Below, one piece after another: positions 26,687 to 53,628 of a stretch of DNA of 64,000 nucleotides. The first letter of the stretch is position 1. Every line of letters begins with the position of its first letter. The DNA is from Bilabrum cf. latius (lineage: Eukaryota). The notes below the pieces were generated by a model. The model had not been told where the DNA came from. It worked only from the letters and a program-made list of their open reading frames with translations, and did no database searches. The stretch spans positions 434,001 through 498,000 of the forward strand of contig OZ237768.1 in assembly GCA_965178125.1 (NCBI GenBank). The letters are read 5' to 3'. The position numbers and the translations under genes were made by a program.

Positions 26687-27107
26687 CCCCCCGCTACGGT
26701 AATAAATAAATTTATTCCCTTCGGTTAAGGAAACAAGTTTCAATAATTACGTTCAGTCAGAGCTAAAGCTCTTCCCTCTCTCCATTCCTTTTGTCGCTAG
26801 TCGCTCCAAAAGTCAAGGTGAGCCTCTTCATACTGCTACTTCATATAACTGCTTTATCCTTCTAATTATAGAAAATCAATTATATATAAAACTCTATACG
26901 ATGACCATATCCACAAATTGCGTATTAGTATATGTATTATTTAGCAAAACGTGGATGTAGCCCTCTTGTGAAGGTGTTATGGGACTCTAGCCATTTTCTA
27001 GCCAAAAGTTCCATCACTTTATGGGACTCCATTATTCAACCTTCTAAACTACCTTCATTATACCCCCTTATCCTCGCTTATACCTTCACAAATGGAACAA
27101 ACGCGCT
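26687..27107 (+). repeat. Left terminal inverted repeat (421 bp)
   Basis: Starts CCCCCCGCTACGGTAATAAATAAATTTATTCCC; reverse complement of 53208-53628 (one mismatch noticed). Confidence 0.95.
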
Positions 27108-27176
27108 TTTATTTTTAAATTGTTATAGAGCGTTTAAATTGACTTAAAAAATATATTTATTATAGGTATATACAGA

Positions 27177-28196
27177 ATGGAATTATTAAAATGGGAAAAT
27201 GGAACCTTGAAAGCTACACAACCAAAAGAATATTATGAACGAAATGGATTTTAGGTTAATTTTGAAGGGAAAACCTATCATATAGCAATGGATAAAGATT
27301 ATATAAGATGGTTTTTGAAGGACTATAAACCTTATGAAATAATAACAACATTCATAACAGATATGAGTGAAGTATTCAATGGATAGGATAAATTTAATGA
27401 ACCTTTGAATACTTGGGATGTTTCAAATGTTAAGGATATGAGTTTAATGTTTCAAAGTTGTAGAAGCTTTAATCAACCATTGAGCAATTGGGATGTTTCT
27501 AAGGTTGAAAAAATGTCGTCTATGTTCTATTTTTGTTCTAAATTCAATCAATCATTGAACGATTGGAATGTTAGTAATGTTAGGGATATGAGTGGTATGT
27601 TTGGTTCTTGTTCAAGATTCAATCAACCATTGGATAATTGGGATGTTTCTAAGGTTGAAAATATGTCCTCTATGTTTAATGGATGTTGGAACTTCAATCA
27701 ACCATTGGATAATTGGGATGTTTCTAACGTTGAAAATATGTCCTCTATGTTCCATTATTCTGAATTCAATCAATCATTGAACGATTGGAATGTTAGTAAT
27801 GTTAGGGATATGAGTGGTATGTTTGGTTCTTGTTCAAGATTCAATCAACCATTGGGTAATTGGGATGTTTCTAACGTTGAATATATATCCTCTATGTTTA
27901 ATGGATGTTAGAACTTCAATCAACCATTGGATAATTGGGATGTTTCCAATGTCTAGAGTAAGTTTTAGATGTTAAAAGATTGTGAAAGTTTCAATCATTT
28001 AGAGAACGGTATTAAGGGTATAAGAATTGATTATTCTACAACATTGATACCGTTGTTAGAAAGACGAAAACATAAAACCATTAAAAAAACAAAGAAATAT
28101 AGAGAGGAATTAATTGCTAAAGCGTGGCACCCTTCAAGATTAGATTGGGTATTGGATAACGAGGAGCGAGACGAGATAGAGGATAATTTTAATTAA
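27177..28196 (+). CDS. DUF285/BspA-like repeat protein 1
   Basis: Repeats FNQPLxNWDVSNVxxMxxMFxxC; continuous through TAGs; ends in TAA. Confidence 0.85.
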
Positions 28197-28285
28197 TAGA
28201 ATTTTAATAATATTAATGATTATTTAATATTATAGTGTGAGTTTAAAAAGGCTTAAATAATATATTTATTATAGGTATATACAGA

Positions 28286-29268
28286 ATGGAAGTTTTAAAA
28301 TGGGAAAATGGAACCTTGAAAGCTACAAAACCAAAAGAATATTATTTTAGAAAAGATAATTATATTGTGAAATTTGAAGGTAAAACATATTACGTAGCTA
28401 AAGATACAGATTTTCTTCTTCACGCATTGTAGTTTTTGAAACCTGAATTATTAGTAACAACAAAACAACGGCATGAGCCGGAACGGCCACTGCCGCGCTG
28501 CCCCGCCCCCTTCCCTAAGGAAGGAGACGAGGGAATGCCTCGCAAGCTGCTGGTCGCACTGGCGGTTGCAACCTCGCGTTGGTAGACCGGAGCCTGTGTT
28601 CGAGTCTCGAACGCATCGCCACATCAACCCCGAACCCCATTCGGCGTTAGCATTAGAATATGTTAAACCTATTTGATAATATGATAATTGAATCACCAAT
28701 AAATTCATGGGATGTTTCAAATGTTAAAGATATGACCGATATGTTTTATGGGTGTCATTCGTTTAATCAACCTTTAAATAACTGGGATGTTTCAAATGTT
28801 GAAGATATGGGCGGTATGTTTAATGAGTGTCATTCGTTTAACCAACCATTGAATAATTGGAATGTTTCAAATGTTGAAGATATGAGTGAAATGTTTAATG
28901 ATTGCCATTCATTTAACCAACCATTGAATAATTGGAACGTTTCAAATGTTAAAGATATGTGCGGAATGTTTTATGATTGCCATTCACTAAATCAACCTTT
29001 AAATAACTGGGATGTTTCAAATGTTGTAGATATGGAATGTATGTTTTCTAATTGTTTTAGTTTTAATCATTTGGAGAATGGAATTAAGGATGAACGAATT
29101 GATTATTCCACGACATTAATCCCATCATTAGAAGAGCGGAAAGATGAAACAATTGAACAAACTAAAAAAATCAAAGAAGAATTAATTTCTAGAGCGTGGC
29201 ACCCTTCAAGATTAGATTGGGTATTGGATAACGAGGAGCGAGACGAGATAGAGGATAATTTTAATTAA
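28286..29268 (+). pseudogene. DUF285/BspA-like repeat protein 2, interrupted by a 185-bp GC-rich insertion
   Basis: Paralogue of protein 1 with the same N- and C-termini; removing 28466-28650 restores frame and spacing (TTKHQNM versus TTFITDM). Confidence 0.75.
28466..28650. mobile_element. 185-bp GC-rich host-type insertion without an obvious TSD
   Basis: Abrupt GC shift inside an AT-rich viral gene; homologous to 21588-21856. Confidence 0.7.
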
Positions 29269-29309
29269 GTTTTATTATAATAATTATTTTATTTTTAATT
29301 ATTATAGAT

Positions 29310-29657
29310 ATGGTTTATATTGTATCATTAGCGTGGGGTAGTGAATGTTATCATACACACTGGGTTAAAAAGTTTAATAATAAGGAAGAAGCACAAAAGC
29401 TTTATACTGACACTTTAAAAGACCAAGCGAAGAGAGTTGTATGGAGTGATAATTGGAAAGAAGAATATAAAAAGGAAGCAGAAGGTCAAGTTGAAAGTTT
29501 TAATGATGACAACGGAACCGATTTCAAACTATTGAAAGAAGAAGAAATTGATAACCTTACTAATAGTGAATTAGAAGAGTATATAGAATTATCGTTGATG
29601 TATGCTGAAGAATATGATGATTCAAATGAATGGTTTGATATTGAGTTTTTAGAATAA
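29310..29657 (+). CDS. Acidic hypothetical viral protein
   Basis: 115-aa ORF, ATG to TAA, flanked by AT-rich hairpins. Confidence 0.7.
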   Translation: MVYIVSLAWGSECYHTHWVKKFNNKEEAQKLYTDTLKDQAKRVVWSDNWKEEYKKEAEGQVESFNDDNGTDFKLLKEEEIDNLTNSELEEYIELSLMYAEEYDDSNEWFDIEFLE

Positions 29658-29704
29658 ATTTTTGAATTTTAATAATACTATTATTATTATTATTAATATA
29701 TAGT

Positions 29705-30121
29705 TTAATCCTTGGGTAAGATAAAGTCATCTATAGCCTTTTTGATGATGTCATCCTTCTATTTCTTTATTGATTTCTCAATGGCTTCCTTCTCTTTTTT
29801 AACCAATAAATCTATGGCTACGGTATCATTTAAGTCTTCACTTAGGCATTCAACATTTTCTTCATTTAGCTTGTGTATTATTCTAAATGGTTGAACGAAA
29901 TATGATATATAATCAATTTCTTCAAATTCACTTAATACTCTTTTTTTAAGTCGTTCATTACAATCTGGAGGGACACGAAGGTCATCAAGTTGAAAATGCT
30001 TTAACATTGATGGTTTGTGCTTCTCAACATAAATATATACGATTGACATAAAAGTGGAGATGCTTTTATTCTTGAGTACCTTTTTAACGTTGACACTTGA
30101 TAACAGGAACTTAACGAACAT
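29705..30121 (-). CDS. Hypothetical viral protein
   Basis: ORF 29759-30121 extends through TAG to TAA at 29705. Confidence 0.6.
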
Positions 30122-30222
30122 ATTATAATGTAGCCCAATATTTTATTTTAATTTATTAAACCCGTTTTATAAAATTCTATAGTTTAAAAAAAATAAAAAA
30201 AATATCTAGTAATTATATATAA

Positions 30223-30594
30223 ATGGATAAATTACAAAAAGTGATTAATACCCGCTCAAAGTTAAAGAATGAATTTCTTGATATTGTAGAAGACTTTAAG
30301 AAGACCAATCGTGAATTAGAACAAAAGTTAAAGCAACTAAAAATAAAAGAGACAGAATTAAAAAATAAAGTGAATAGTAAATTAACCGCTCTTAATGTGG
30401 AATATAAAGAGGTGAGCAAAAAGAAAGCAGAAGCTATAGCCCCTTATATGAAAACTTTAAAAGCATTAAAAGGAAGGATGACTGGATTGACAAAGAAAGA
30501 CAAGGACAAGCTGATTGACGTTCATCAAGAGATAAGGAAAATTAAAGAATAGATTAAAGTAAATGAAGCTATTAATAGGCTTTTTAATTCGTGA
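30223..30594 (+). CDS. Lys-rich coiled-coil hypothetical protein
   Basis: Extends through TAG at 30550 to TGA at 30592; upstream TATCTA motif. Confidence 0.6.
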
Positions 30595-30634
30595 ATAATT
30601 AATTTATAAATATTAAAATCAATTAATATATATA

Positions 30635-31792
30635 ATGAGTAAGAGAGGAAAGAAAAAAGATAATGATATTAATGAGTCAAGTTTTGGATTTAATACGAAG
30701 TCTATCACGAACGATTTAATGAAGCCGATAAAGAAACCGAAAGGATTGAATTATGTTAAATATTATAAACCTACTAAAGAGGGGCTTATCCAATAGGCTG
30801 ATTTATTGTATCTCCCTTACGCTACCAAGAACGATTCAAAATATTTATTAGTTGTGATAGATACGAGCGGGTTAGCGTTAGATTTTGAAGAGTTAAAGGA
30901 TAGAGGGGCGGAGGATGTGATAAAAGCTTTTCAAAAAATCTATAAAAGAAATTATTTAATGAAACCTAAAATGATACGAACAGATAAAGGGGGAGAATTT
31001 GATAATGAATTATTTAAAGAATATCTAAAGAAGAATAAGATAGAGCATATATTTTCAAGAGTGAAGCGTAAATCGTAGATGGCTTTGGTGGAGAGATTGA
31101 ATGAGGAAATAGGGAGAGCTATATTTTATTATTTGAATTCATAGGAGATAAGAACGGGGACAACTATTACGAACTGGAGACATTTAATACCAAAGTTGAG
31201 GGAGATATTAAACGAGCGTTATAAAACAAGATAGGAAATGTTGAATAAGAAAAGGGAGAATCTACCATATATACCGCCTAGATGTTAGGGTGAAGTATGT
31301 GATGTATTAAATGAGGGCGAAATGGTAAGAATAGGATTAGATTATCCTAGAAGTATAGAAGGGATAAAGGAAACCGGAGCATTTAGGGCGGGAGATATTA
31401 AATATAGCGTAAAGCCTTATAAAATTGAAAGAGTAATAATAAAACCAGATAACCCCCCATTATATAAAATTGAGGGCATACCCTATACATACTTTAATAG
31501 AGATTAGTTGTTATTAGCATCTAAACCATACGAGAATAAAGCACAAGATATATTTATAATTGAAAAATTGATAAGAAAGAATAAAAATAATACATACAGG
31601 GTTAAATGGAAAGATTCATATGTTGATGAGGCTACTAAAAGAAAATATTAGAATGATATAGGTAAAATAATAAAGAGAAGAAAGAATCAAGAGGGACAAG
31701 ATGAATATTTAATTCAATGGAAGATAACAACGGAGCCGGCTAAAAATATATCAAAAACTCTAAAGGATAATTTTAATAATAAGACTAAATAA
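30635..31792 (+). CDS. Retroviral-type (rve, DDE) integrase with a chromodomain-like C-terminus
   Basis: IQ(TAG)ADLLYLP, YLLVVID, IRTDKGGEF, KS(TAG)MALVERLN; C-terminal YRVKWK and EYLIQWK; 385 aa with TAG as sense. Confidence 0.9.
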
Positions 31793-31828
31793 ATATTATT
31801 AATTTATATTTTAATAATATTCAAATAA

Positions 31829-32446: not shown

Positions 32447-32491
32447 TATATATATCTATACAAAACAAAATATTATTATCCTATAGACTAA

Positions 32492-34573
32492 TTATTTTAA
32501 TAATCTTAGTTTTTCAAAGTGTTGATATAAGATTTGTTTTACCTTGTCCTTCACATTATGATTACCTTTACCACCGGCTACATTAAAATATTCTTGTTCA
32601 ATTTGTCCTCCTTTATGCTTGCCACATCCACAACTACCGCCCCTGTTCTATGTTTTTATTTTCTAATCAATAATTAAATTAATAGCTTTCATTAACATAT
32701 TATAAGGGTCTTTATTTCCGAAACCTTGAGCTGGTGGTGAATATGTCCATTGAGGCTTCCCGCTTAATTCATATCCCGTATCGTTTAGTCTTGATTTTGC
32801 TAATGTTCTATCACTTCTGGTTGCTCTTCCTTCTGTATTTGCTCTAGCTACTAAGGACCTAACAGCATCAGTTGATAAATTAGGTTGTAAGACTCCGGCT
32901 TTAAGCCTTCGTACAATATATTTTAAAGTGTTAATTGTTGGGCTGGCGTCTGTTGGATTTATTCCTCTTGCTTTTAACTATGATAATATTTCATTTTTAT
33001 TGCCTTTAGCATTTATTGATTTTCCTATTGATTTGGCTATTTCATCATCTGTTTTCTGTGGTTCTTGTGGTTCTGCTGGTTCTTGTGCTGGTTCTGCTGG
33101 TTGTGCTTGTTGTGCTGGTTCTACGGCTTCTCCATCTCTTGGTTCTTCATCTGGGGCTCCCCTCCGTTCTCTAGCTTGTCTTTCTTTTTCTTCTTGTTGT
33201 CTTTGTGCTTCATCTCGTTCTGCCTGTGCTTGTCTTTGTCTGAATTGAACTTCTGTAAGTTGTCTTCCAAATTCATCTGTAATAGGTTCTCCATCTTCAT
33301 CTACTGCCATCGCTTCACCTTTTCCTCTGTCTTGACCTGCGGGGGGTGCTGGTGCTTGTGGTTGTGAGCCTGTTTTTCCTGTTAAATAACTGATACCATC
33401 CATAACCGATTGTCCTAAAGAACCAAATGTGCTTTGTTGTTGTTCTGGTGATTGTCCTTGTTGTTGTTCTGGTGATTGTCCTTGTGGTTCTGGTGATTGT
33501 AAGAATCCACTAGGTGGAACTGGTGCGGGTGATACTTTTGAAAACTAGCCTGATAAATTTCTACTGGCGTTCTCCCCTTCTTCTTCTTGTCCTGATGATT
33601 GTGATGCCTCTTGTTCTTGTGCTTCTTGTTTAAGTTCTGATAATTTCTTCTTAGCACTTTTTATAAAATCAACTTTAGACCGTCCTTTTACACCTTTAAC
33701 ATTTGACTCTCTAAGTATTTTTGCTAGTTCGGTTTTCTTTGGTGCTTTTCTACTACTTGAAGGATTGGCGTTTGCTACTCTTTCAAGTGCTTCAATTTGT
33801 TCTTGTAGTTCTGGGCTTAATGCTTCTTGTGGTGTTGGAGGGGGTTTTGGTCTTGGTTCTGGTGGCGGTTGCGGGTTATCTGGTTCAGGTCTATCAGGTT
33901 GCGGGTCATCTCTTTGCTATTGTTGAACGGCTTCAGGAGGATTTAAAACATCCTATAAAGCATTAACAGCGTCATCAACTTTTGTTAATTGTGAAACATT
34001 CTATCCTTGGGGGGTTTTCGTGATTCCAGCTTGTCGTAAAGCGTTTCGTATTTGAACTGCTTTTAATCCTCTCATATCGCTTGGTAATTGTTCTAATACT
34101 GCGTCCCGTTGTGCTTTAGTGGTTGTAAATAATCTCATATTAATATTTTTAATTCCATCAAATACCTTTTTCTTATCGCTTGCTGGTCCTACTACCTACC
34201 TTACATTAATATTATTAATGGTATCTACAACCTATCTTTTTAATTTATCCGGTAAATCTGGATTTCTATTTATAAATGATTGTAAATTTTCTATTTGATA
34301 AATTGGTAATTCTTTTTTAGCGTTCATAGTCTTAATATTTTTAATAATATTTTCAATTCCTTGTTGTTGTTGTTGTCTTTCAATTCTAACATCAATAGGA
34401 ACATAATTAGCACGAAGGAAAGCATCATCTTTTAGGGTTTTTCTTCTGGCTTCTGCTTCATCTTCTTCTTGCTATATCATTAATCTAACTTGTGGGTCAT
34501 TTTGTATCCTAAGTTGATTAGACCGTTTCTACATAATACCCTTCAGTAAATCATTAATTGTATTGTTTGACAT
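32492..34573 (-). CDS. ~690-aa Pro/Gln/Glu-rich viral protein of unknown function
   Basis: ATG at 34573 is in frame with ORF 32978-33403 and TAA at 32492; the stops inspected are TAG; middle not checked codon by codon. Confidence 0.65.
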
Positions 34574-34650: not shown

Positions 34651-35244
34651 TTAAACTTCTTGCTTTCGGTTTTTCTTACATCTGTCTGTCCTTTGATGTC
34701 TCCTCAAATGACATCTTGTCGCCGTGGCTCCACATAATTCACAAATTATTTTTTCTGACTTATGGGCTTGTATTTTCTCTTTATTAGCTTCCCGATACTT
34801 TTTATTTGTGGCCTTTTCAGACTCCAAATTTTTCAATCGCCTCTCCTTTCGCTCCTAGGTGAGCCTTACCGAATGCTTTAAACGATACTCTTTCTAATAT
34901 TCTTTTATTTTTTCCTTGTTATCTATAACATATTCTTTTTGTGTTCGTCCTGCTATTCTATTATTACAACATTTTATTTGTCTCTACCAATATCCTTCCC
35001 TTCTAAGTAGCTACATTTTATTATCACAGGGGTATTCCTCTAGAAGTTCAATTTTGTATTTCCCCGCTTCTAATACATCAAAAGATGAACATCGTCCACG
35101 CTATCCTAGATTATATTTTCTAAAATCGTCTTTGTGTCCCCCTTTCCTTTTTGATAGGGTTTGAACTGTTGAGCCTATGTACGGTAAAATCTTCTTTACT
35201 GTTGAATACATAATATATATTTTTCCTTTCTTATAATCTGGCAT
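34651..35244 (-). CDS. GIY-YIG endonuclease with C-terminal zinc finger
   Basis: MPDYKKGKIYII...PYIGSTVQTLSKR..H; IELLEEYPC; LRREGYW; CELCG..HQRT. Confidence 0.85.
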
Positions 35245-35318
35245 ATTGTATAATATATATGGGGGCATATCTTTAATTCGTTTTTATTCGTTTTTTCCTT
35301 AAGTATATATAGCACTAT

Positions 35319-36557: not shown

Positions 36558-36649
36558 CTTTTTTTGTGAGGAAGGATAGAAGAAGGAACCAACTTAATAT
36601 TTTAAACCCGTGTGAATAAATGGTTTATTTTATTTTATTATTATATATA

Positions 36650-37720
36650 ATGCTATCTTTACAATATACGGAAAATAGCCATATTGTAGCTATTCAAAAA
36701 TACAAAAAAACACAATAGAACCGGTTTATTTATTACGACCCGAACGCTAAAGATATTCAACACGTCAAAGCGGAAGAGATAACAGATGATGTTTTAAAAT
36801 CTTATTACGGAGAAAGCCGAGTAAGATATAACGTTGATAAGGACAAGAAAAGGGAACAATTACATAAACTATTACAAGATGAATATATACGGTCAGTTTA
36901 GGAATTTGCGATTAAAGATAATAGTCAATATTTACCTTTTCCTATGCTCTTTCCATAGGGGCGTGAATATGTGCGATTATTTGGTAAGAGTGGAAGCGGG
37001 AAAAGTCATTTAGCTTTACATTATATAAGGATGTATAGAGGATTAAAATATAAAAATATGTATGTTATATCACCAATTCAAGACCCTAAATATAAAAGAG
37101 AAGGCGCGACCTTCATTGATATAGATGATTTGGTTAAAGAGAATGAAAACACTTTATATAAGGAAAAAATGGCTTATTATAAAAAAATGAAATTAGAATT
37201 TAAATATAAGAAATCTTCTTTGATGAAATCTAAACCTTTAGATGTTGTTATTGAAGCTGAAAGAAAGATAGAGGATTTGAAACCTGAGAAAGATTTAATA
37301 GAAAAAGGTTTTAAATTAAATGTTGAGTTTTTTAAAAAATTGACCGCTGAACCTAATTTATTTATTCTGGATGATTACGAAGGCTTTAAAAAAAGGAACC
37401 AGAAAGCAAAGGCTTATTTTTTATTGGAAATCCTAGCAACTACAGGAAGGCACACAGCAAGTAGCGTTTTAGACATCACCCACAAAATAAGCGACGGTAT
37501 GAAGACACGAACCATTATGAACGAAATTACAACCCATATCATTTATAAAACAATTACAGCTAAAAGTTTAAAATATATTTTAGAAACAGTCTTAAGTTTT
37601 GACGCTCCTACTAGAAAACGAATTAAAAAAACCCTTCATTCTCTCCCTCTCTTTGGTTATGTTGCTATTAATGTTGATAATAATTATGTAGTTAGCACAA
37701 AAAAAATATTTCTCTATTGA
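36650..37720 (+). CDS. FtsK/HerA-type genome packaging ATPase
   Basis: Walker A GKSGSGKS, Walker B LFILDD, TGRH motif; N-terminus extends through TAGs to ATG at 36650. Confidence 0.9.
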
Positions 37721-37728: not shown

Positions 37729-38304
37729 ATGAACATAAACGACTTAAATAGACTAGTCCAAACACCGTTATCTCCTTTAGAAATTCAAAAATTAGGTGTA
37801 GCACATTTGAATTACAAACCTAGAATAGTTATTTACGATGATATTATTAAATAGACCTCATCTATTGAACATATTTTTGATGGTTATGACGGCGTAATTA
37901 TTTATTATCCTAATAAAAAGACGGGACTAAATAGCACATACGGTCATTTCATTTCATTGACCAGAAAACCATCAAGCAAAATAATATACTTCTTTGATAG
38001 CTATGGAGAAAAACCCGACCAATAGAAACCATTTATTAATAGAGACCAATTGTATCAAGGAGAAGGAGAAGAAAATACGCTGGTAAAGTATTTAATTGAT
38101 TAGAAAATGGAAGGTTGGAAAATTGATTATAATCATAAACCGATTTAGAGTTATGCTAACAACAGCGCTACGTGTGGAAGATGGGCTCTATTAAGAAACG
38201 CTTTTTCTTTCTTATCAAATGATTAGTTTGTAAATGAAATGTTTAGAATATCCAAAATTATGGCTCTTAGTCCTGATTAGTTAGTGGCGTTGCTTCTACA
38301 TTGA
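37729..38304 (+). CDS. Adenain-like cysteine maturation protease (absent from the ORF track because of TAGs)
   Basis: GHF, YFFDSYG, I(TAG)SYANNSATCGRW give a His-Asp-Gln-Cys set; ends in TGA. Confidence 0.9.
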
Positions 38305-38309: not shown

Positions 38310-38510
38310 CCGACCATCTAATAAAAGGGCTAGAATAAAATAATAAAATATGATTATCTCTAAAATAAAATCCATACGATGGCTATATCCACAAATTGCG
38401 TATATATTATAGTGTTTTCTAGCAAAACGTGGATGTAGGGCCTCTTGTGAAGGTGAAATGAAGATATAAGCCCTTTTATTTAGAAAAGTTCCATCGTTTT
38501 AGAAGGGCAA
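38310..38510 (+). repeat. Internal copy of the TIR-derived conserved non-coding element
   Basis: ATACGATGGCTATATCCACAAATTGCGTA...TAGCAAAACGTGGATGTAG...AAAAGTTCCATC matches TIR 26890-27025. Confidence 0.85.
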
Positions 38511-38640
38511 TTTTTCATCCATCTAAATTCAATCAAACTTTTAAATATATTGGTAAAAGTGAAGGGTAAAAATCAAGATGAAATATTAGATAAGGTTTAT
38601 TAATAAATATTTATTTGTATAGCTTTAATATATAAATAAA

Positions 38641-39594
38641 ATGAGTTATAGCGATGAATTTGTAAGATTGAATTTAGTTAGTTCATCTGTCCCCCACAAT
38701 TAGACGAGATAGGCGGTAGTGAATGAAACCCGTGAAGGCTTAATATTAAAACAAAGTGAAAATTATTTAACGGCTGTTGAAGAGATGGATTTAAATAAAT
38801 TTATGCTACCGGTGTTTAAACCTGAATATTAGGATGACAGCGGTAAAACCTATTTAAAATTTACTCTTGAGAATAAAACATCAGGAGCCAGAGCAGGCGA
38901 TTATATAGTTCTAGGTAAAAAAGCTAAATTTTATTATTCATATTAGGATATTGTAAATGAATTTAATGAAGAGTTAAGCCGAATTTGTGATTTGGTAAGC
39001 CTTCCAAGTGGTGATAAACCAGTCTTTAAATTTGAAAATAATAAATGGAGTTTATCAACAACTGAAGATTTTAGAGATAATTATTATTTATTTGTTAATT
39101 TTGAAGCTTTTGCTTTATTTGATAAATTTGAATATGAAGGAATAACAACCACACCGAGTGATTTATTTGCTAAACTTTCATATAATAATTCCCCTGCTAG
39201 TGGTGATTATGTTTTTATGGCTAGATAGACGAATTTAAATTCTTGGTGCCCTGTTAAATCTATTATCGTAGAAAGTGATATTCCAGTGAATAAAGAATTG
39301 GTGACCACAAAATCATCTACTGGTGGCTCTATAGCCGTCAATAAATCCCCTATATTAACCAGCTACCCGTATAATCCTAATGACAGCTCACCAATAGAAA
39401 ATATATTATATGTTTCTAATCCTTACCGCTGGTATTCAATGATGAAGGATAGAAGCTTTAAGAGCGTGTCAATGGCGTTCTACTGGGTTGATAAACAAAA
39501 TGAAAAGTATCCCGTAATGAATTTTAACGGGGGTGAAGCTCACATTAAACAAGTATTTAAAAAACAAACCGATAATTTAAGTTTAGATTTTTAA
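38641..39594 (+). CDS. Minor capsid (penton) protein
   Basis: 317 aa with TAG as sense; lies between the protease and major capsid genes; beta-rich C-terminus YRWYSM..SVSMAFYWVDK. Confidence 0.75.
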
Positions 39595-39665: not shown

Positions 39666-41555
39666 ATGGCTCAACAAATGGTTCAGAATTTACCAGTAAG
39701 CATTAAGGCTCCTAAAAGCCTTCAAATGATAACCCCTGAAGATGCTAGTTTAGGAACAGAACTAGGTGTTCAAAAATATACCCGCCGAGAAATTAGACCA
39801 TCATCTAATCAATCTAATTCTCTTCTTCCCCTTTCTTTCCCCGTTAATCCTACTAGTAAAACCGTATCAAGGTTTATTCGTCTTCGTCATCGTATGACAG
39901 TTAGGCTACAACTAGAGCAAGCAGTGCCAGCTCAAACTGCTGGAGGTGATGCTATTACCGCTCAATCTTATCTTAAATCTAGGTTTGGAACTAATTCATT
40001 ACCTACCTTTAAAATGCTTCAAGGTGGTGTTTTAACAATTAATGGATAGCCTTTTACAGTAAAAGTTTATGAATGGGCTGAACCTACCGAAGTTATGAAC
40101 AGTGAAGAAACCTTATCCACAATCTCACCCGTTGGACGCCCTGACACTGTTGGTGATTATCGTGAAGTAAGTGATACCCTTAAAAATCCTTTAGCTTGGG
40201 GTTAGGATGTTGGATATAGTGCCGGTGATAGCTTTAGTTATCGTGGAGCATATGGGAATGCTTTTACGACTGTAAATGCTGATTTCGTTGCGGGTAATAG
40301 AGACCAAATTGATTGGACTATTGATTTTCAAGAAGCTATACCACTAAAAGGAGCAGATGTTGATGTGAATGCTAAATATTTCACCGGTGTGAGAAGCCTT
40401 CAGGTTGATTTAGATTATCACGTAAATGCCATTCAAAGACTGTGTAAGGCTAGTTTTACAAAAGATAACGGAGATATTAACAAAATAACGGGTTAGTCAA
40501 TTATAGGAGAAACAAATACGACCCTTCTTGTTGATGAAGTTGAATTTTAGAGTGGATACGCCCCCCCGACTCGTTGTATGTATAATATGCCTACAATTAA
40601 ATTTTAGTCTTAGGCGCCTGTCCCTGTACCTAAATCCGCAACTGAAAATTCTTTAACTTCTTTTGATTATCAATTATCCCGTGAGAATGGTATCCCTAGT
40701 GCTATTATGGTATGTGCCCGCCTTGTTGGTTGTGATGATAACCCTAACTGGGCTAATAGAACTTTACCAATTAGAAGAATAGGTTTCTCACTCAATGGAA
40801 GCGCTGAGGAATTAGGGGCTGTAGATAATCCACACGAATTATATAGAATTAGTAGAAAGAACGGATATGCTCTTCCTCCTTCATCCTTTTATGGTTCATC
40901 AATTGATGGAAGTGATGGAAACCGCGGTACTGGTTGCTATATGATTTTAAAACCTTCAGATGTTGCTACACTTGCTGGTGTTCAATCTAATGTAAATACT
41001 GGATTTAATCTTAAAGTTAATCTTCAGTGCTTCAACCCTTATAATAAATATGCGGATGGTGCGTATGAGGATAAATACGAGATAAAAGTATGGATGTTTT
41101 ATGATAATGTTCTTGTGAATGATAACGGTGTCTATACTGAGGCTGGCGCCCTTATTGAGCCTTCTAAAGTGCTTTCTGAACTTGCTAAACGTGGTGATGC
41201 TGAAAGTGGTTCTAAAGGTTTCTAGCCTGTATTTGAGGATTTAGATAATTATGCTAATGTTATGGGTGGAAAAGGTCGTTTCTGGTCTAAGATTGGACGA
41301 GCCTTTAAACACGGATGGAATCAGGTTAAAGATTGGGCAAAAAGTGATTAGGCTAAAAACCTAGCGAAAACCATTAGGAATATAGGACCACTCAAAAGTC
41401 TAACAGGAGACAATAGCGCTATTGGCAAAGCGGCGGCACATTATGGATATGGAAATAGTGGAGGAGAATTGAATAAGCTTGGTGGAAAACTTACGATGCG
41501 TGGTGGCTAGGCTATGCGTGGGGAAGATCTCGAGGCCCTTTTAAGCACATCTTAA
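39666..41555 (+). CDS. Major capsid protein, virophage-type double jelly-roll (629 aa)
   Basis: ORFs 39666-40049 and 40707-41225 are in one frame joined by TAGs and end in TAA at 41555; size and position fit; motifs LPIRRIGFSLNG and ELYRISRKNG. Confidence 0.85.
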
Positions 41556-42824: not shown

Positions 42825-43025
42825 ATTACAACCTTCTAAAGTGATGGAACTTTTGGGCTAGAAATACGATATCAATCAAATCATCTTCATAAAACTAATC
42901 CATCCACGTTTTGCTAAATAATACATATACTAATACGCAATTTGTGGATATAGCCATCGTATGGATTTTATTATAGAGATAACCATATATATTTTAATAT
43001 TCTAGCCCTTTTATTAGATGGTCAA
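42825..43025 (-). repeat. Internal inverted copy of the conserved non-coding element
   Basis: GATGGAACTTTT...CATCCACGTTTTGCTAAATAATACATATACTAATACGCAATTTGTGGATAT. Confidence 0.85.
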
Positions 43026-44145: not shown

Positions 44146-45645
44146 ATGATAAATTACGAAAATGTGTTAAATCAATTAAATATATGCTTTGGTAAAAAGT
44201 ATGATAACCCCATTCAATCCGTGAAGTATCTAGAAAAGGTATTTAACGGTAAGCCCATAACTACAAAGAACCTTTATAAACTTGTTTCAGGTCTAAAAAT
44301 GGATATAGAGATTAGAGAGAAAGACGATATAAAGGTCTATTATCTAAGTAGGAAAAAAGAGAGTTTTAAAAGGGTTTGTTTAGAATATAAAGATGGTTCA
44401 TTTAAAGCCGTCTAGAGGATGAAACCTTTATTTGTGCGGTGCCATAAATCTATGGTTGTTAAATTAACCGATAAAGCCGAAATAATTGAAAAAGATAAAT
44501 ATAGAGTTGAGAGCCTGACCGATTATCATTCAAAGAAATATTATCTTCATTACACCATTCACGAATGCCCAGAGGATGAAGATATCAAAGAATGGAGCTT
44601 AAGGCTGAGTATAGCAAGTGATGAATTACACGACGAGAACCCATCATTAGATGTAATGAAATATGGAATCAGACAAACAGCCCTTCATTTCTTTACAATG
44701 TTTAATATGATGATAGATAGCCCACCAGATATAACCCCAGAGGAAGCGGTATTTATTGAAGGTTCAACGCGTGGCGGGATTCAATATCACAAGAAGGGAC
44801 AATATGAGGAGTTTATCACCTACGATATAAATAGTCATTACCCCGCCATTATGTCATCTAATTCACTACTACCATATGGAAATCCTATTTATAAAACAAT
44901 TGATAATAAATATATAAATAATAAAAACGAAATAGGGATTTATAAATGTAAGGTAAGCCGTGGAAAATGCGACCCGAATATCTTTCAAATGATGAAGGTA
45001 TTTGAAAATGAATTTACTTATTATGTCTTTACAGATATGAATATGTTTGTTAAATATGGTTGTGAGATAGAGATGTCAAGCGACGAATTTAATTTTATGA
45101 CCTATGATAAATATATCAAAAGTGAAACACTTTTTAAATCCTATGTCTCAATGTTCTACAAATTAAAAAGCAAATCATATCTAGCAAAAGAAATATTAAA
45201 TTCATTATGGGGTAAATTATGTAGTTCCTCTAAAAAGACAATTACATCAAAAGACGATAAAAAAATAAATATAGATAAATTTGATATTGACCGTGTAGAA
45301 ATGGATAATGACGGAGAATTTATTTATCATTTGAAACATAAAGTACCCTTTAAATATAGCTGGGGAAAATTGAAACCTTTTATTCTGGCATATGGAAGAC
45401 AACGATTGATGAAGAAAGTGAATAAGAACAACGCTAAACATATTATACGAATTCACACCGACAGTATCACATTTAACAAAAGATTAAATTTTAAAGTAGG
45501 TAAAGAATTAGGTGAATATAAAAAAGAATAGATTAATGAAGAAGGATAGAAATTAATTATCCACGGATAGAATGATTTAATGGTCGTAAATGAAAAAGAA
45601 GAAATTATATCAAGGAAAGGAAAAAAAGGCGGTTTAATGCTTTGA
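44146..45645 (+). CDS. Family B DNA polymerase of protein-primed type, compact (499 aa)
   Basis: RGG, YDINSHYP, KEILNSLWGK, HTDSI, LGEYK; joined through TAGs at 44413 and 45529; ends in TGA. Confidence 0.88.
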
Positions 45646-45839: not shown

Positions 45840-46547
45840 ATGAATGATAATATACCTAATTATGTTAATAGTCCTAAATTATGGCGTCAGGCAGTTGAGA
45901 AAGTAAATAGAACGTATAAAAAGCCTTCAGCTTATCGTTCATTAGCATATTTTGCTCGTTATAAAAAACTAGGGGGGACATATGATAAAATTAAATTAAA
46001 TGAAGCATAGAAAAATTTAAGAAGGTGGAAATTAGAGGATTGGAAGAATTAGAAGGGAGAAAAGGGATATTAGGAAAAAGGAGATATATATAGACCCACT
46101 AAAAGAATAAATAAAGAGACCCCTTTAACCTTTGGAGAATTAGACACGGAAGAAATAGAGGAAGCAATGAAGGAAAAATTTAATAACGGACACGTGAAAT
46201 CATTTAGACCTAAACCAGTTTTTAATTTATATAAATCAACTAAATCAAATAAAAAATATATGATTAAAGTAGTTCAAGGTAATAATATTCTGTTTACTGT
46301 TCATTTTGGTGGAATTAAGAATGATGGTACCCCTTATATGGACTTTATACAATATTATAATAAAGATGGAGAGAAGGAAGCAAACCGTAAAAAGAAAAAT
46401 TATATTAAAAGACATTCAATAAATGAAGACTTTAAAGACTATAAATCCCCCGCTTTTTGGTCTAGGTTTGTATTATGGAATGAACCAACATTAAAAGATA
46501 GCTTTATGGACGCCGTAGATAGAGCTAAAAAATTAATGAAAGTTTAA
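45840..46547 (+). CDS. Two-domain protein resembling small NCLDV/PLV families (DUF5872-like plus DUF5754-like)
   Basis: SAYRS..YKKLGGTY..RWKLEDW..YRPTKRINKETP, then KSTKSNKKY..VHFG..YMDF..RH..SPAFWSRFVLW; family names from recall only. Confidence 0.65.
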
Positions 46548-46600
46548 TATTATAGGTTTGATATAAGTTTTAGTTTTTCTCTTATTTATATATACAAAAA

Positions 46601-47122: not shown

Positions 47123-47164
47123 AAAATCTTTTTATTTATAAAAAAAATAAATAAATAGATAAAT

Positions 47165-47467
47165 TTAAATTGATATCTCCGGTGGTTTAATCCCGCTATT
47201 AAGCAGGGTTTGATTAAGTTTCTTGATATATTCCTCTAGTATATCCTTTTTTGGTTCTTTGAGATTTTTTTGGTGTTTCTTCGTTCGTTCGTGTCTCGTT
47301 CTGTCCTTCCTTCTATAATAACAATCACACACATCGCATTTAACTTTTTCATTTCCTCTAGCTAAATATTTTTTATTCCATTTGTCTTTGTTTGTTTTGT
47401 AATATTCCTACATATAATTAATTTTTGGTTGTTCCTATGTATTGCTTGAACTCTAAATATCGCTCAT
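47165..47467 (-). CDS. Small C2H2 zinc-finger protein
   Basis: KVKCDVCDCYY...RHERTKKH; ATG to TAA through TAGs. Confidence 0.65.
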
Positions 47468-47525
47468 CACTATATATTATATAAATATATAATGTTTAAG
47501 TTATTTTAAACACATAAAAAAGGTA

Positions 47526-50303
47526 TTAAATATTCTAATCTAATCGTTCGTTGGATTCCTTGTATACGTCCTTCATTTCGGGATACTAATATTTATAAAC
47601 TTCATCAAATAATTCTTTCTCCTTGGTGAATTTAATTCTTAATTCTCTATCCTTTTTATCCTTTTTATTTCCCATACTCCAAGAGGTTTTAATATTTCCA
47701 AATAACTACTTATATAATTTTACTATTGCCCCGTGTAATTCACTATCGGTTTCTATTGGCTTCTATAATCTCGCCCCGCTTACTTCTACATATCTTTTAC
47801 CCATTTCTATATATTTAATGGATTTCTCATTTTTACGTGTATAACTTAAATCAAATTTATTCAATTTAAGCGTCTATAACATCTCCTACAATATGATTAT
47901 TTTATTCTTTGTACTTTTTGCTTTCTCATCCTTAAAATCCTTTCTATCCTTTAATTCTGTCATTAGTTTATATTTATCTTTTCTCTTGAAATTAGCATAA
48001 TTAAAATAATTCATTAATTTGTAATTATCAATTAATAACATTTTAATATCCTCCGTTATGGCTGTCTCTGGTAGCCCTAAAATTTCAATTCTTCTTTTTA
48101 TATGGTCGTTCTCTACATCAAATGAATCAATCTTTTCTTGTAGTATCTCCATTGTCGCCTCTTTCATCTGCTATTTATTCATTCGTTGTGGTAATTCCTT
48201 ATCCACCTATACATCGGCACCCCTGTTTTTAAGAATAAGCTATAAATGAATATATTTATTTGTTTCGTATGTATCACATTTGAAATTATATAATTTCTTG
48301 AGTGGTAAATAAACCTTATATGATGCCTCTATCATTGCTTTATGGGCTATCTCTTCATCATCTTCTCCCTCAAAAATATCAATGTCAATATCATTCTCCT
48401 ACATTATCCTTTTTTCGTATTTTTCTAATTTAGTATATAAATCTGTCTATGCGTTAATTTCCATATTTAAGGTCGTCTATACCTCCTTTAAATTCTCATA
48501 TCTTGGATAAATGGATTTTACATCTTCAAAATATATATTCATATATTCGGGATTTCTACATCTTGCCAGTTGCTACATCATCTACGGCGGTAGAATCGTT
48601 TTTCCTTTATATAATCCATACACTGGGCGCTCCATTACACTATCTAATCCGTAAATGACTTTAGGACTAAATATAATTTTATCATATTTATCTAAGCTCA
48701 CATCCTCATCAGGTAATAAATCACTAGTAATTAATTTAACGTCCTCTATACCATCTTTACATAACATTTTATAAAATGTATCTGCGTTCTTCTTGCTATC
48801 ACACGCCAGTATAAATTTATCTTCACTTTTTAATTTATCGTAAAATTTCTATTGGTCTTTTTCAAAATATACTTTTACGTCCTTAAAATGCTTATATTTA
48901 TTCTTAATGAAGCTAAATTCTACTCCAGCACATTTTAAAAATTTCATCGCTATCTGGGATATGTCAGCATCTACAGCAATAAACTATTTACACGTCCTTA
49001 TCATTTTTAAAATAATAAATAATACAAGAACCCTATTATTATTCATCGTGGTAGAACTTAATATATGCTCTATAATGCTATTGAATTCATCCAAAAATAC
49101 GATGTATTTAGAAAAATCATAATTCACAATTTGGGGGATACTTTCCGGCGTAATAATAAGAGACTATCCAAAATCAAAAGTTTTATTCTGGTAGAACTCA
49201 CATTTAATATCTTCATTTAAAAAGCTCTCGTATTGCTCTGTGCCTAAACATACACGGGATACAATGGATAAGAACGGCGTTTGAACCTGTTTAATGTATT
49301 TCTTAAATGCTGTTGTTTTACCTGTTCCTGTATCACTTTTTACCACATAATTATATTCATATTTAAAAAATCGTTCGGGCTTCTCTATATCATCTAATTT
49401 AGGTTTATTAATTTCTGTATACCCGTTAATATTCTCGTCATAAGGACGATAATAACACTTTGAAATATACTTATCTTTCACAAATGCCTTTAAACTTTTA
49501 TCATTCTAAATTATTGAATTAACTAAATTAAAGGTTTTTAACTTATCAAAATAATGGATAGAGTTCCACACCTTGTTATTTTTGTGGTAGTCGTATTTAT
49601 TGCCCTTCTTGCTCCACTCCTACCACTCCTTCTTAAATCCTAAATATTTACTCGCTAGGGTTGCTTTATACCAATCACTATAATTATTTAAATATTTCTT
49701 ATCTAGTCTATTTAATATAATTGACCAGTCTTTACCATTTAAAATGAATTTCATCATACAGTTATTCACATCTTGATTATCAATTTTTGATATCCTTTTA
49801 CTCGCCCCTTTTACGTTGGATTTCTTAGAGGATTTAATAATATACTTTTCATAAAATTTATAAAGCTCCTTAGGACATTTTTTTATTTCTACATTATTAA
49901 TAACTTCGTATTTTGACCCATTTATGCCACTTGGTGGTGCCACTACATAAGCCCCATCATTCCTAATATCAACGTCAATATCTCTATTGGTGGTAGTTAA
50001 TATATTCTAATCATATTTAAAATATAGATGATACCCTCCACCCGCTGTTTTAACCGTGAATGTGTTGAACCGCTTCACAAAGTCATCTGAAAATTTCTTG
50101 ATGAATAAATGCTCCTTCTTATCGCTCCATTTATATGAATCAATATCAAACACGGTTATATTATTAATTTCTCCGGTGATAATAGCCATATTCTGATTAT
50201 TAAATCGTTTAGGCTCGGGTTTGGTGAGATATCGCCAGCTTTTAACATCAGGTATTTTTTGATTGTGCTTGATGGGGAAACTAACGAGGTTTTTATTATT
50301 CAT
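47526..50303 (-). CDS. Prim-Pol primase fused to an SF2 origin-binding-protein-like helicase (~925 aa)
   Basis: ITVFDID, KTAGGGYHLYF, DIRNDGAYVVAPPS; KSDTGTGKT, FLDEFNS, QLARCR; five track ORFs in one frame; ends in TAA. Confidence 0.85.
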
Positions 50304-50459
50304 TTTCTATATATATTATTAGAAATATATTTTTAAACTATTTTAAACGCCATATTTAATTATAGAGGGCTTAAAGGGGCTATAATAATTAATGAAGGTA
50401 AAAGGTGATTTTTGCCATTTAGCCCTAAAAAATAGATTGTGATATGAATGGTGTATTTT

Positions 50460-50655
50460 AACACCTTCTAAAGTGATGGAACTATTTTTAAAAATTATCT
50501 AAAGGTCCCATACCACCTTCACAAGAGGCCCTACATCCACGTTTTGCTAGAAATACTATATAATTATACGCAATTTGTGGATATAGCCATCGTATAGATT
50601 TTAATATAGCGGTTATATTAAAATATTTTATTAAATTCTAGCCCGTTTATTAAGT
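50460..50655 (-). repeat. Third internal copy of the conserved non-coding element
   Basis: GATGGAACT...CCTTCACAAGAGGCCCTACATCCACGTTTTGCTA...TACGCAATTTGTGGATATAGCCATCGTAT. Confidence 0.85.
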
Positions 50656-50666
50656 TGTAGGGGCTT

Positions 50667-51437
50667 TTAATTATAGATATCTTGTAGTTTTTCGTGTTCG
50701 GCCTTCACATCAAGGGTCAAATATACACGGCTATTCCAAAACTCAGGGCTGTTTATATCATCGCTATTATTAATATTAAAATTTCTTTTAATTTTACAAA
50801 TCATAATTTGTAATTTACGAGGGCTAAACTATTTCTTAAGAGCCTCTACATCGGGTAAATTAATTTCACCAAAAAATACATCATTTCCATTTACGGACAC
50901 TTTATACCTATAATCCTGATTCTCTAATTTAATTAAATCACCTATTATTTTTTTCTCTTCCTCAGGTATCATTTCATCATCAGTTTCTGCTTCTATCTAG
51001 TCTTGTTCGGTACTAACGCTGTTTATTTCACTTTCACTGTCAGGCTCCATACCGGTAAATTTTTCATCTATTGCGGTCTATCTAATTAATTCTGGCGGTT
51101 GTAAATCATCTACATCATTATAAATTTTATTATTCTGTGGTTTATAGTCATTAAATTTATCTAGAATGTATGTTTGGTTAATTTCAAGCTGGTCGTTATT
51201 ATCGTGTTGTATCTTCTGTTTCTCTTCTTTCTTGGGTTTTTTGACGGCTTTTTTCTCTTTAATATCACTAACTATATTTTTATTAATTAATTTAGACGTG
51301 GAAAACCTTCCACCTAAATCTACATACGTAGTAATGGTCTCTAAAATTTTTTGCGTACTATCTGTAATATGGTCTGTAGCCTTATAAATCTGCTTCATTA
51401 GGACGGGATTTTCAATGACATAATTATTAAAGTTCAT
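50667..51437 (-). CDS. Hypothetical viral protein (256 aa)
   Basis: ORF 51078-51437 continues through TAGs to TAA at 50667. Confidence 0.6.
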
Positions 51438-51749
51438 ATCTATAATACTAAGTTATAATTTTTGAGTTTTAAAAAAACGCTTAGAGGTGGGGGGGTTATG
51501 TGGGGGTTATCCCTAGCCTTTAGGCTAGGGTTATGGGTCTGGCTTCAATTATTCAATCCAATTCTCCTTCCTTTGCGGTTCCATCCGTCAGTTTATACCC
51601 TCCTGCCCTACATTTTCATCACTTCCTCGTGCTGGAACTTCTCACTGCTACCACTGGAATCGGCTATCGTCTACCACCTTCTCATCTTCATCTTCGGAAC
51701 CTGTGCTACGCCAAAATTTATCTGGACCACACATAAAACACATAAAACA

Positions 51750-52217
51750 ATGGCCGGGGTTTCTACAGATGTTAATGATGAAGTAATGAAGGCGCTTATT
51801 GCTGGTATTGAAGACATTGGAGCAGTGGGCGAGGAGTGGGACAGGGTTCTTCAATCTTTTGACGGCGAGACTGCCACGGTGAAGCTAGGCGAGGAAATCC
51901 AGACCTATGAGATTATCACCGAAGAAGAAGCAGACAAACGTTTGGACGACCACGCTACAGAGACGCTTGCTTCCTTCGTTCCTGCGTTCCTCTCGCGCTT
52001 CCTGCCTTGCGATGCCGATATCATAAGCACCGCTACCGCTGACGCGAACCACAGCGAGGCTTTAAGCGCCCTTCTTAAGTCATTTATAGTGGCTTAGGGG
52101 CGCTGGGACGACCTCATTCAGGCCTGTAAAGATGAGGACGGGCTGGGACATTTTCTAAACAGCTACGACGGGAGCACGAGCGAGCAAAATGGATACGTGG
52201 TGATGCGTGTGGATTGA
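51750..52217 (+). CDS. Acidic hypothetical protein in the intermediate-GC segment
   Basis: MAGVSTD...FIVA(TAG)GRWDDL...DGLGHFLNSYDG...TGA. Confidence 0.6.
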
Positions 52218-52400
52218 TTGGATTGACTGAGACCACAAATGAAACATTGAAATGCTCTTCAATGCGGGATTCCACCCGTGTCAATGCTGGAAGCACGGTT
52301 CGTACCCTGCTACACACGACAGCGTGGCCACTCCAATATAGCCGTGTCCCTACCAATAACAAACACGACAATTTATAATAAAAAAGGTTGTTCAACCTTC

Positions 52401-53094
52401 TCACTTCTCCATCTTGGGCTAAGAACCCGCCGTCCGGGGATAGTCCTGGATGAGATTCTCATTGCCGCGAAACCGCTTGGCTGGTGCGGCGATGCCAGAT
52501 TCCAGAAGAAGCTACTTGTTGAAGTCTTGGCGGCGCTTCCTCTTCTGGTTCTTCTCCAAAACATCACCAACGAGCGATGGGATGTCATATGCTGGAAGAA
52601 ATGGCTTGAGGATAGCCATTTTCTGTGCCAAGAACGCCTGTGTCTGCCTCGTCTCCGCGTAATCTCTGCCGTGATGTAGAATCTTCAGCACGCCATTAAT
52701 CCGGTCAAAGTCAGCATCGGTATCGTCAAGACTCCCCTTGGGGAATATTGAAGCGATAACAGCGAGTAGAGCCTTTGAGTTGACGCCTGTCGGTTCCAAT
52801 GCTCCGACCGCCTCCCGAATTGCCTTCTCCAGCGACTTCCCGGTTTGCTCAACGAGGTGCATGTCCCCTAGTAGCCTTGAATGCGCTTTCAAAAGCTTCT
52901 TGGGGTTCTTCTCGGTTTGTACGGTGTCCTGGAAGGTGAGTAGCGCTTCCGTTCCCGTTTTCTTGCGTTGGTCGGGCTTGAAGAGCTGCGTTGGCGAGCA
53001 AAACCGGTGCGATAGATACAGATACGGTCAGCAAAGCAATTTCCATATGTTGATTATCTATCCTGTGGATTCTTACCTCAATCTTGCGGTCCAT
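52401..53094 (-). CDS. Hypothetical protein with a predicted spliceosomal intron (52986-53076)
   Basis: Exon 1 MDRKIE|GTAAGA...GCTGAC...CAG|LFKPDQ in phase 0 joins ORF 52512-52892, which continues through TAGs to TGA. Confidence 0.45.
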
Positions 53095-53207
53095 ATCTAT
53101 TGTTTTAGGCTGGTGAAGTGATCAGCTGGCCTACAGCGTCATCGTTCCGGGGTGTATTGAACTGTGGCGCTTGTGGTATTGCGATGACGAGTGTAGCAAG
53201 TTGCTGT

Positions 53208-53628
53208 AGCGCGTTTGTTCCATTTGTGAAGGTATAAGCGAGGATAAGGGGGTATAATGAAGGTAGTTTAGAAGGTTGAATAATGGAGTCCCATAAAGTG
53301 ATGGAACTTTTGGCTAGAAAATGGCTAGAGTCCCATAACACCTTCACAAGAGGGCTACATCCACGTTTTGCTAAATAATACATATACTAATACGCAATTT
53401 GTGGATATGGTCATCGTATAGAGTTTTATATATAATTGATTTTCTATAATTAGAAGGATAAAGCAGTTATATGAAGTAGCAGTATGAAGAGGCTCACCTT
53501 GACTTTTGGAGCGACTAGCGAGAAAAGGAATGGAGAGAGGGAAGAGCTTTAGCTCTGACTGAACGTAATTATTGAAACTTGTTTCCTTAACCGAAGGGAA
53601 TAAATTTATTTATTACCGTAGCGGGGGG
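53208..53628 (-). repeat. Right terminal inverted repeat (421 bp)
   Basis: Ends ...TTATTACCGTAGCGGGGGG, followed by TGCAA. Confidence 0.95.

Follow-up and report, generated by a model that had tools for sequence, protein, structure and literature searches.

The stretch of DNA analysed here, called the window below, comprises the 64,000 nucleotides at positions 434,001 to 498,000 of contig OZ237768.1 from Bilabrum cf. latius (assembly GCA_965178125.1). It holds an AT-rich island that is bounded by terminal inverted repeats, lies inside a tandem family of host lectin genes and carries the predicted gene set of an endogenous virophage (Table 1). In this island, as in the host genes on both of its sides, TAG occurs in frame as a sense codon, and the reading frames end at TAA or TGA.

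Boundaries and insertion site of the element

The two arms of the terminal repeat are identical at 421 of 422 bases by direct count (99.76% by blastn), the sole mismatch being at repeat position 108. The near-identity of the repeats claimed in the initial annotation, which had been made from the letters alone, is borne out; that annotation had also picked out the right element, with each of its ends (26687 and 53628) one base away from the actual one. The GC content in 2-kb windows is 0.28–0.40 in the element and 0.54–0.65 in the flanks, or overall about 30% vs about 60% for the host. The element interrupts a paralogue of the B_lectin (bulb-type lectin) family on the minus strand, whose two parts translate as ...GDRLQRGEIL in the right flank and HSAIGPLGNG... 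in the left. All four intact paralogues read RRGE(I/V)L-x-SA and lack an extra residue at the cut point, so the GCA on either side of the element is taken as a 3-bp target-site duplication; no paralogue contained a 21-nt pattern for the uninterrupted insertion site, even when three mismatches were allowed, and the point was settled on the protein level. In the left remnant of the cut lectin copy similarity is lost after about 100 residues, and this copy may carry other damage. The near-identical repeats, together with the open genes and the precision with which the host gene was cut, are consistent with a recent insertion, to which they assign no date.

Next to the right repeat, the element includes a 1.7-kb block whose GC content of about 50% is unlike that of both the virophage (30%) and the host (60%). 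Its two open reading frames (ORFs) match no Pfam family, and the block has no second copy in the 64-kb window.

Table 1. Features predicted in the window (window coordinates; TAG, number of in-frame TAG codons; aa, amino acids)
Feature	Position	Strand	Size and codons	Basis or remark
Putative virophage element	26686-53629		26,944 bp	AT-rich island closed by terminal inverted repeats
Left terminal inverted repeat	26686-27107		422 nt	inverted-repeat pair
Right terminal inverted repeat	53208-53629		422 nt	inverted-repeat pair
Target-site duplication GCA	26683-26685; second copy 53630-53632		3 bp	flanks and paralogue comparison
Promoter-like motif GTTTAAAATGACTTAAA	27132-50348		eight copies	each ends about 29-30 nt before ATG
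Intergenic repeat	26881-27021; 38365-38527; 42837-42975 (-); 50469-50608 (-); about 53294-53434 (in right repeat)		about 140-170 nt, five copies	conserved hairpin
DUF285 (BspA-like repeat) protein	27177-28196	+	339 aa, 5 TAG	Pfam PF03382, E 1.1e-86
Second DUF285 paralogue, split	28286-29268	+		ORFs 28286-28666 and 28660-29268
rve integrase (retroviral-type)	30635-31792	+	385 aa, 7 TAG	PF00665, E 5.8e-11
Low-complexity Q/P/E-rich protein	32492-34573	-	693 aa, 11 TAG	no Pfam family
Protein common to virophage-like contigs	34651-35268	-	205 aa	tblastn
P-loop packaging-type ATPase	36620-37720	+	366 aa, 3 TAG, ends TGA
Clan CE (adenain/Ulp1-like) cysteine protease	37729-38304	+	191 aa, 6 TAG
Penton (minor capsid)	38641-39594	+	317 aa, 5 TAG	mavirus penton 6g41, E 6.5e-24
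Major capsid protein (MCP)	39666-41555	+	629 aa, 9 TAG	mavirus MCP 6g45, E 3.7e-8, residues 92-620
Protein-primed-type family B DNA polymerase-like	44146-45645	+	499 aa, 4 TAG
DUF5872-family protein	45840-46547	+	235 aa	PF19197, E 8e-21
Primase-polymerase + helicase, largest gene	47526-50303	-	925 aa, 20 TAG	Prim-Pol, E 7.2e-16; PriCT_2, E 3.2e-6
GC-rich block	51480-53207		1.7 kb, about 50% GC	inside element, adjoins right repeat; ORFs 51750-52217 (+, 1 TAG) and 52401-52862 (-, 2 TAG)
Host reading frame	3630-15749	-	4040 codons, 33 TAG, ends TGA	no TAA/TGA inside
Host B_lectin tandem family	16365-18170; 18404-20173; 23057-24721; 26006-26685 + 53630 onward; 54277-56145; 56314-58170	-
Host CLU/TPR gene	58687-63999	-	1771 codons listed, 5 TAG, ends TAA	leaves the window

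Gene content and class

The predicted ATPase, protease, penton and MCP genes are found in that order on one strand, the order also found in mavirus. The penton also matches Pfam V18-19 above its cut-off (E 5.3e-7), and the match of the MCP to 6g45 takes in the C-terminal region, where the Pfam family MCP_V20_C falls under its cut-off (E 3.7e-3); no other capsid protein among the PDB sequences matched either of them (phmmer, E up to 10). In the protease, H73, D90, Q140 and C149 are invariant in 8/8 sequences. Its predicted model (pLDDT 84.7) has an adenain-like fold, for which Foldseek returned 22 matches at E <=1e-3, with adenovirus proteinase 1nln (E 6e-5), Ulp1, SENP, African swine fever virus (ASFV) pS273R and poxvirus I7L among the proteins matched; a profile of the protease searched against PDB sequences gave no significant match, the best relevant one being SdeA (E 0.23). 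The putative ATPase has the Walker A motif GKSGSGKS and the motif LFILDD, and it weakly matches the PHROG terminase large subunit (E 1.1e-6) and, as a profile, the DUF87/HerA-like chain 8yho (E 8.8e-5). It reaches no Pfam family above the cut-off of that family, and a local search of the fetched loci found eight homologues beside capsid genes.

The C-terminus of the integrase is chromodomain-like, with a weak match to Chromo (E 1.8e-4) that lies under the Pfam cut-off. The polymerase-like protein gave no Pfam or PDB match as a single sequence; PF03175 was detected on 4 of its 14 homologues, and a profile of these 14 homologues (A3) matched the phi29 polymerase 1xhx with an E-value of 4.4e-12, in a region that takes in palm motifs A, B and C (the YDINS.YP, LNSLWG and HTDS blocks). 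This match begins at phi29 residue 237, the first ~220 residues being unmatched, and no exonuclease domain was detected. All the hallmark genes named in the initial annotation are present, the one it had called PolB being a short, divergent and truncated-looking polymerase of the protein-primed type. The mavirus-like layout that it proposed also holds, with the four-gene morphogenesis order, the rve integrase, the terminal repeats and a penton and an MCP that match mavirus proteins. Membership of the element in the virophage class, as a mavirus-like representative, is supported by this predicted gene content.

The same integrase, protein-primed-type polymerase, terminal repeats and full capsid module are features of Polintons, and the element could in principle be a self-sufficient Polinton-like or Maverick-type element that needs no giant virus. 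We consider this unlikely, although it is the strongest of the alternatives: among all PDB sequences the penton and MCP significantly match mavirus proteins only, the gene order is that of mavirus, the motif found upstream of several genes (see below) resembles the Mimiviridae early promoter used by the virophage-like PgVV, and the element encodes a DUF5872-family protein, whose family is presumably of giant-virus origin.

Among the remaining genes, that for the 205-aa protein has tblastn matches in 12 of 78 IMG/VR loci as well as in two metagenomic loci, L079 and L080; its product has no Pfam or PHROG match, and a GIY...YIG pattern was seen in it by eye only. The second DUF285 gene is cut by a GC-rich insert of ~190 bp (~28470-28655, local GC 0.48) and is the only clearly broken gene of the element. 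By eye, the 3' part of this insert is tRNA-like and ends in CCA; ARAGORN found nothing in the insert, nor did a search of Rfam over positions 26600-28800 with E up to 1. Host DNA at 21828-21859 shares 91% identity with a 32-nt stretch of the insert, which may be a small host mobile element.

In-frame TAG in the element

When TAG is taken as sense, 27 ORFs with a total of 7427 codons are defined in the element, and 24 of them contain at least one TAG. They hold 107 in-frame TAG triplets, whereas TAA and TGA are absent in frame and serve only as terminators, of 21 and 6 ORFs respectively; none ends in TAG. In the other two frames of the same ORFs, TAG makes up 19.9% of the stop triplets (339/1703), from which the probability that random decay would yield 107 TAG out of 107 is ~1e-75. 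Reading TAG as sense raises the coding coverage to 83%, vs 32% for standard-code ORFs of at least 100 aa, and leaves short gaps between the genes; the standard code yields short ORFs only. The penton stops at the same residue at which a 94% identical penton from another assembly (P0167), which is also open, comes to its end, and the stop of the protease coincides with the ends of its homologues; TAA and TGA therefore behave as true stops. With 190 CAA and 22 CAG codons alongside, TAG accounts for 107 of 319 putative Gln codons.

The initial annotation had described hallmark genes that are broken by TAG only and closed by TAA or TGA, without frameshifts, in an intact element, and had named TAG at random residues together with comparable numbers of TAA, TGA or frameshifts as the signature of decay. 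The counts above agree with the first part of that description and show no such signature, there being no TAA or TGA in frame. Freedom from frameshifts holds for the genes with homologues, which align in full or over long distances: residues 5-924 of the 925 of the primase-helicase with P0001 of another assembly (50% identical, the best of 3977 homologues at E <=1e-3), residues 1-317 of the penton with P0167, residues 52-498 of the polymerase-like protein with a 62% identical relative from another assembly (P0154), and residues 92-620 of the MCP with mavirus MCP. It does not extend to the second DUF285 gene, and 'intact' likewise applies to the hallmark genes and fails for this one accessory gene. 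The further claim that standard-code pipelines would dismiss the element is half right. A public record from another assembly, P0150, is a 107-aa standard-code fragment of the helicase gene (99% identical), and another, P0153, is the full 499-aa polymerase of the window with TAG read through, from which it follows that at least one gene caller applied a TAG=Gln model to the contig.

The amino acid encoded by TAG

The assignment of TAG was tested on the element genes. In an alignment of the primase-helicase with the best 100 of its 3977 homologues, residue 577, a TAG codon, is Q in all 100 and residue 440, also TAG, is Q in 60; Q makes up 14.8% of the residues at TAG columns, 20.6% at CAA/CAG columns and 2.9% overall. 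The closest homologue has Q at 5 of 20 TAG sites and at 4 of 14 CAA/CAG sites. To guard against bias, TAG was masked as X and 78 related IMG/VR loci were searched with tblastn; 7 of the 27 ORFs found relatives. Q was the commonest residue at the TAG sites (16.4%), compared with 23.5% at CAA/CAG, 4.0% at Glu and 4.6% at Lys sites. Residue 54 of the integrase, a TAG codon, is Q in 4/4 relatives, and the active-site Gln140 of the protease is itself encoded by TAG, with Q in 7/7 relatives in the masked search and 8/8 in the homologue alignment. Over the 40 TAG columns with aligned homologues, Q gives the best BLOSUM62 score per column (0.96), followed by E (0.69) and K (0.43). Control columns gave 1.60 for E vs 0.81 for Q at true Glu and 0.54, 0.51 and 0.42 for Q, E and K at true Gln, so that the TAG columns score like true Gln columns and unlike true Glu columns. 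Given that TAG is sense, it very probably encodes glutamine in the element, in line with what was first proposed: the invariant-Gln sites and the masked comparison, in which Gln is the commonest and best-scoring residue, point the same way.

It is improbable that TAG specifies another amino acid, of which Glu would be the next best and Lys the one after it. Glu does come second in the scores per column, several TAG columns have Glu or Asp as their most frequent residue, and P0167 has E at one TAG site; yet Gln is invariant at three functionally fixed sites, and the true Glu columns score unlike the TAG columns, which the true Gln columns resemble.

The host code

Six host frames with a total of 8210 codons contain 53 TAG, 273 CAG and 86 CAA, with TAA or TGA only at their termini. 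The longest of them, the 4040-codon frame, has a low-complexity Ser/Ala/Gly/Pro-rich product with no recognisable domain in the parts tested. The CLU/TPR gene on the other side of the element gives a read-through translation that matches the Pfam families CLU (E 6.5e-10) and TPR_12 (E 2.2e-43), the CLU domain being a sign of a eukaryotic host. Four B_lectin paralogues that flank the island have 2, 6, 5 and 2 in-frame TAG and no TAA or TGA, within well-conserved sequence. The host code reads TAG as sense and keeps TAA and TGA as stops, and because host frames on both flanks carry in-frame TAG, the code is that of the host and not private to the virus. The proposal that the virophage is adapted to a recoded host stands, on firmer ground than could be seen when it was made. 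The B_lectin genes are secreted-looking, with products of ~600 aa, and the virophage sits inside one copy; the other host genes of the window encode a beta-helix protein and low-complexity proteins, in long and intron-poor frames. Rfam gave no match in the whole window at its gathering score.

Recoding confined to the virus, in a standard-code host and with a suppressor tRNA supplied by the helper or by the element, would have parallels: the literature describes phages in which TAG=Gln (code 15; PMC9523058) and an ochre-suppressor tRNA in one virophage clade (PMC6905037). We nevertheless reject it as very improbable, on the host frames with their in-frame TAG; moreover, ARAGORN found no tRNA gene, suppressor included, in the 64-kb window, and TAG is present in 24 of the 27 element genes, the integrase included, and is not limited to a late module. 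Least credible of all, and rejected because the in-frame stops are all TAG, is the reading as an untranslated pseudo-element, decayed or edited, in which TAG arose by nonsense mutation such as C-to-T editing of CAG, for although CAG is rare in the element and one transition away from TAG, the 7427 codons hold neither TAA, TGA nor frameshifts, edited CAA would have yielded TAA, the repeats are near-identical, the conserved genes of the host share the feature and the 94% identical penton of another assembly is open as well.

Upstream motifs and intergenic repeats

With up to three mismatches, GTTTAAAATGACTTAAA occurs eight times in the window vs 0.18 expected, and all eight sites are in the element. 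They precede the gene starts at 27177, 28286, 41603, 42209, 43628 (-), 44146, 47467 (-) and 50303 (-), among them those of the primase-helicase, the polymerase-like protein and the two DUF285 proteins. The core of the motif, AAAATGA or AAATTGA, resembles and yet differs from the Mimiviridae early motif AAAATTGA, a relative of which is used by the replication genes of PgVV (bioRxiv 10.1101/2022.07.28.501842). Upstream of the polymerase-like and primase-helicase genes the motif takes the form GTTTAAA(A/T)TGACTTAAA. A second motif, TATAG, is located within 40 nt upstream of 14 of the 27 genes, vs a background of 7.5%.

All five copies of the intergenic repeat can form a long hairpin that is conserved among them, TATATCCAC...GTGGATGTA; its inner stem is TTGC/GCAA, and its loop is variable in sequence and constant in length. 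One copy is located between convergent genes, and 2 of 37 predicted pairs are changed on both sides. Transcript-end hairpins are used by Mimiviridae (PMC4402537), and the repeat may be a hairpin of this kind.

Relatives of the element

The closest metagenomic relatives of the helicase, at L079 and L080 (44% identity), are open in the standard code, which argues that the heavy use of TAG is specific to the lineage of the element. Relatives of the MCP were found neither by tblastn against phage records, nor by a word-indexed protein search, nor by a scan of IMG/VR; a scan of JGI metagenomes gave 16 pattern matches, none of which was confirmed, and local phmmer against the 976 ORFs of 83 fetched helicase-sharing loci gave none. 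With no MCP relative detectable in these 83 loci, the replication genes and the capsid genes appear to have different kin. The stretch itself is present, whole or in part, in nine sequencing-run rows from four studies, six of which contain at least half of the sampled words.

Comparison with known systems

Mavirus is a virophage of ~19 kb that depends on Cafeteria roenbergensis virus, and endogenous mavirus-like elements are known; the target duplications of mavirus and of Polintons measure 5–6 bp. The element resembles mavirus and the endogenous mavirus-like elements (EMALEs) of Cafeteria burkhardae in its penton and MCP, which are homologous to 6g41 and 6g45, in its clan CE protease, in the order of the four morphogenesis genes, in its rve integrase and terminal inverted repeats and in being an AT-rich island within a GC-rich host. 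It differs from mavirus in its length of 26.9 kb, in its use of TAG as sense and in its 3-bp target duplication, as well as in its combination of a primase-polymerase-helicase with a short polymerase in which no exonuclease domain was detected, its DUF285 genes and its GC-rich 1.7-kb block.

The endogenous Polinton-like elements (PLVs) of Streblomastix strix use host code 6, a match that Bellas et al. (2023, PMC10120064) took to reflect a long association. Like the element described here, they are small DNA viruses integrated in a protist and written in the non-standard nuclear code of their host. In those elements, however, TAA and TAG both encode Gln and the MCPs are of the PLV/Metamonada type, whereas here TAG alone is reassigned and the capsid genes are of the mavirus type. 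Reassignment of UAG only to Gln has been described for Iotanema spirale, Protocruzia tuzeti and two lineages of phyllopharyngean ciliates (PMC11687900; PMC5304391), which share with the present host a TAG that is sense (in the latter most likely Gln) and a TAA and TGA that are still stops. PgVV-14T, a Polinton-like virophage of Phaeocystis globosa virus (bioRxiv 10.1101/2022.07.28.501842), is comparable in that upstream of its replication genes stands a relative of AAAATTGA, the early promoter of Mimiviridae. Unlike PgVV-14T, the present element has the core AAAATGA/AAATTGA and a mavirus-like capsid module, and its helper is putative. The genes of code-15 phages such as the crAss-like ones are likewise broken by TAG only and open with TAG = Gln (PMC9523058); the phage code, however, differs from that of the host, whereas a single code serves both partners here. 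According to a giant-virus catalogue of 2026, every confirmed isolate was obtained from a host with the standard code, and hints of other codes are limited to metagenomic bins (PMC13524828). Full-text literature searches, whose scope ended at supplementary tables, found no published virophage in a reassigned code; the related items that they returned were the virophage clade with the ochre-suppressor tRNA, the Streblomastix elements and the giant-virus catalogue.

A probable virophage that shares the code of its host

We propose that the element is an endogenous mavirus-type virophage inserted in the tandem lectin family of a GC-rich eukaryote and sharing the TAG-sense code of that host, and we put the probability of this reading at roughly 0.85. 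Because TAG is found at catalytic and invariant Gln sites, synthesis of the proteins would require a cell able to decode TAG, with glutamine as the most likely residue. The means of decoding would come from the host, in the form of a tRNA-Gln(CUA) and an altered release factor. A helper giant virus would transcribe the element from two recurring upstream motifs, host ribosomes would translate the transcripts using the host tRNA-Gln(CUA), the clan CE protease would process the capsid protein and the integrase would perform integration. The element would still be able to replicate and to form particles when the helper infects the cell, and the helper itself would tolerate TAG read as sense.

Several observations weigh against this proposal. 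As regards glutamine, the margin of Gln over Glu is moderate (0.96 vs 0.69); at positions 228 and 380 of the helicase, TAG takes the place of an Asp conserved in most homologues; one of the five TAG sites of the penton corresponds to E in the 94% identical protein; and the four TAG sites of the polymerase correspond to Q, R, E and Q in its 62% identical relative, which speaks against a clean Gln. In the lectin paralogues, TAG is aligned with CAG, GAG, AAG, TGG and other codons, by which sense is shown and the residue is not fixed. The window contains no tRNA gene that could account for decoding. As regards the virophage itself, the accessory DUF285 gene is broken, the assignment of the ATPase consists of weak matches, its predicted model (pLDDT 39.3) being left unused, and the 1.7-kb GC-rich block is unexplained. 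In IMG/VR, the 17-nt motif matched eight contigs once each, which is the level expected by chance, and no giant-virus contig had several matches. There are also no RNA runs among the listed sequencing rows that hold the stretch.

More tentatively, and at odds that we put somewhat below even for the three statements taken jointly, the locus may reflect a GC-rich protist, with UAG as glutamine and UAA and UGA as stops, that hosts a complete giant-virus/virophage system under that code; a virophage lineage that has lived in the TAG code long enough for a third of its Gln codons, catalytic ones included, to be TAG; and an altered code that acts as a barrier confining the virophage and its putative helper giant virus to the host lineage. 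The host may belong to a UAG-to-Gln lineage that is not yet described.

Implications

A virophage that looks intact and follows the code of a host with a reassigned TAG provides concrete, though indirect, evidence for infection of such hosts by giant viruses, and the element points to a host in which giant viruses of recoded cells may be sought. Standard-code gene calling fragments such elements, as the 107-aa record P0150 exemplifies, so that they may be counted as decayed when endogenous viruses are surveyed. Because the element is untranslatable in a standard-code cell, it also offers a natural test of whether a changed genetic code limits the host range of viruses. By implication, and with the helper still putative, a whole giant-virus/virophage system would be working under a non-standard code.

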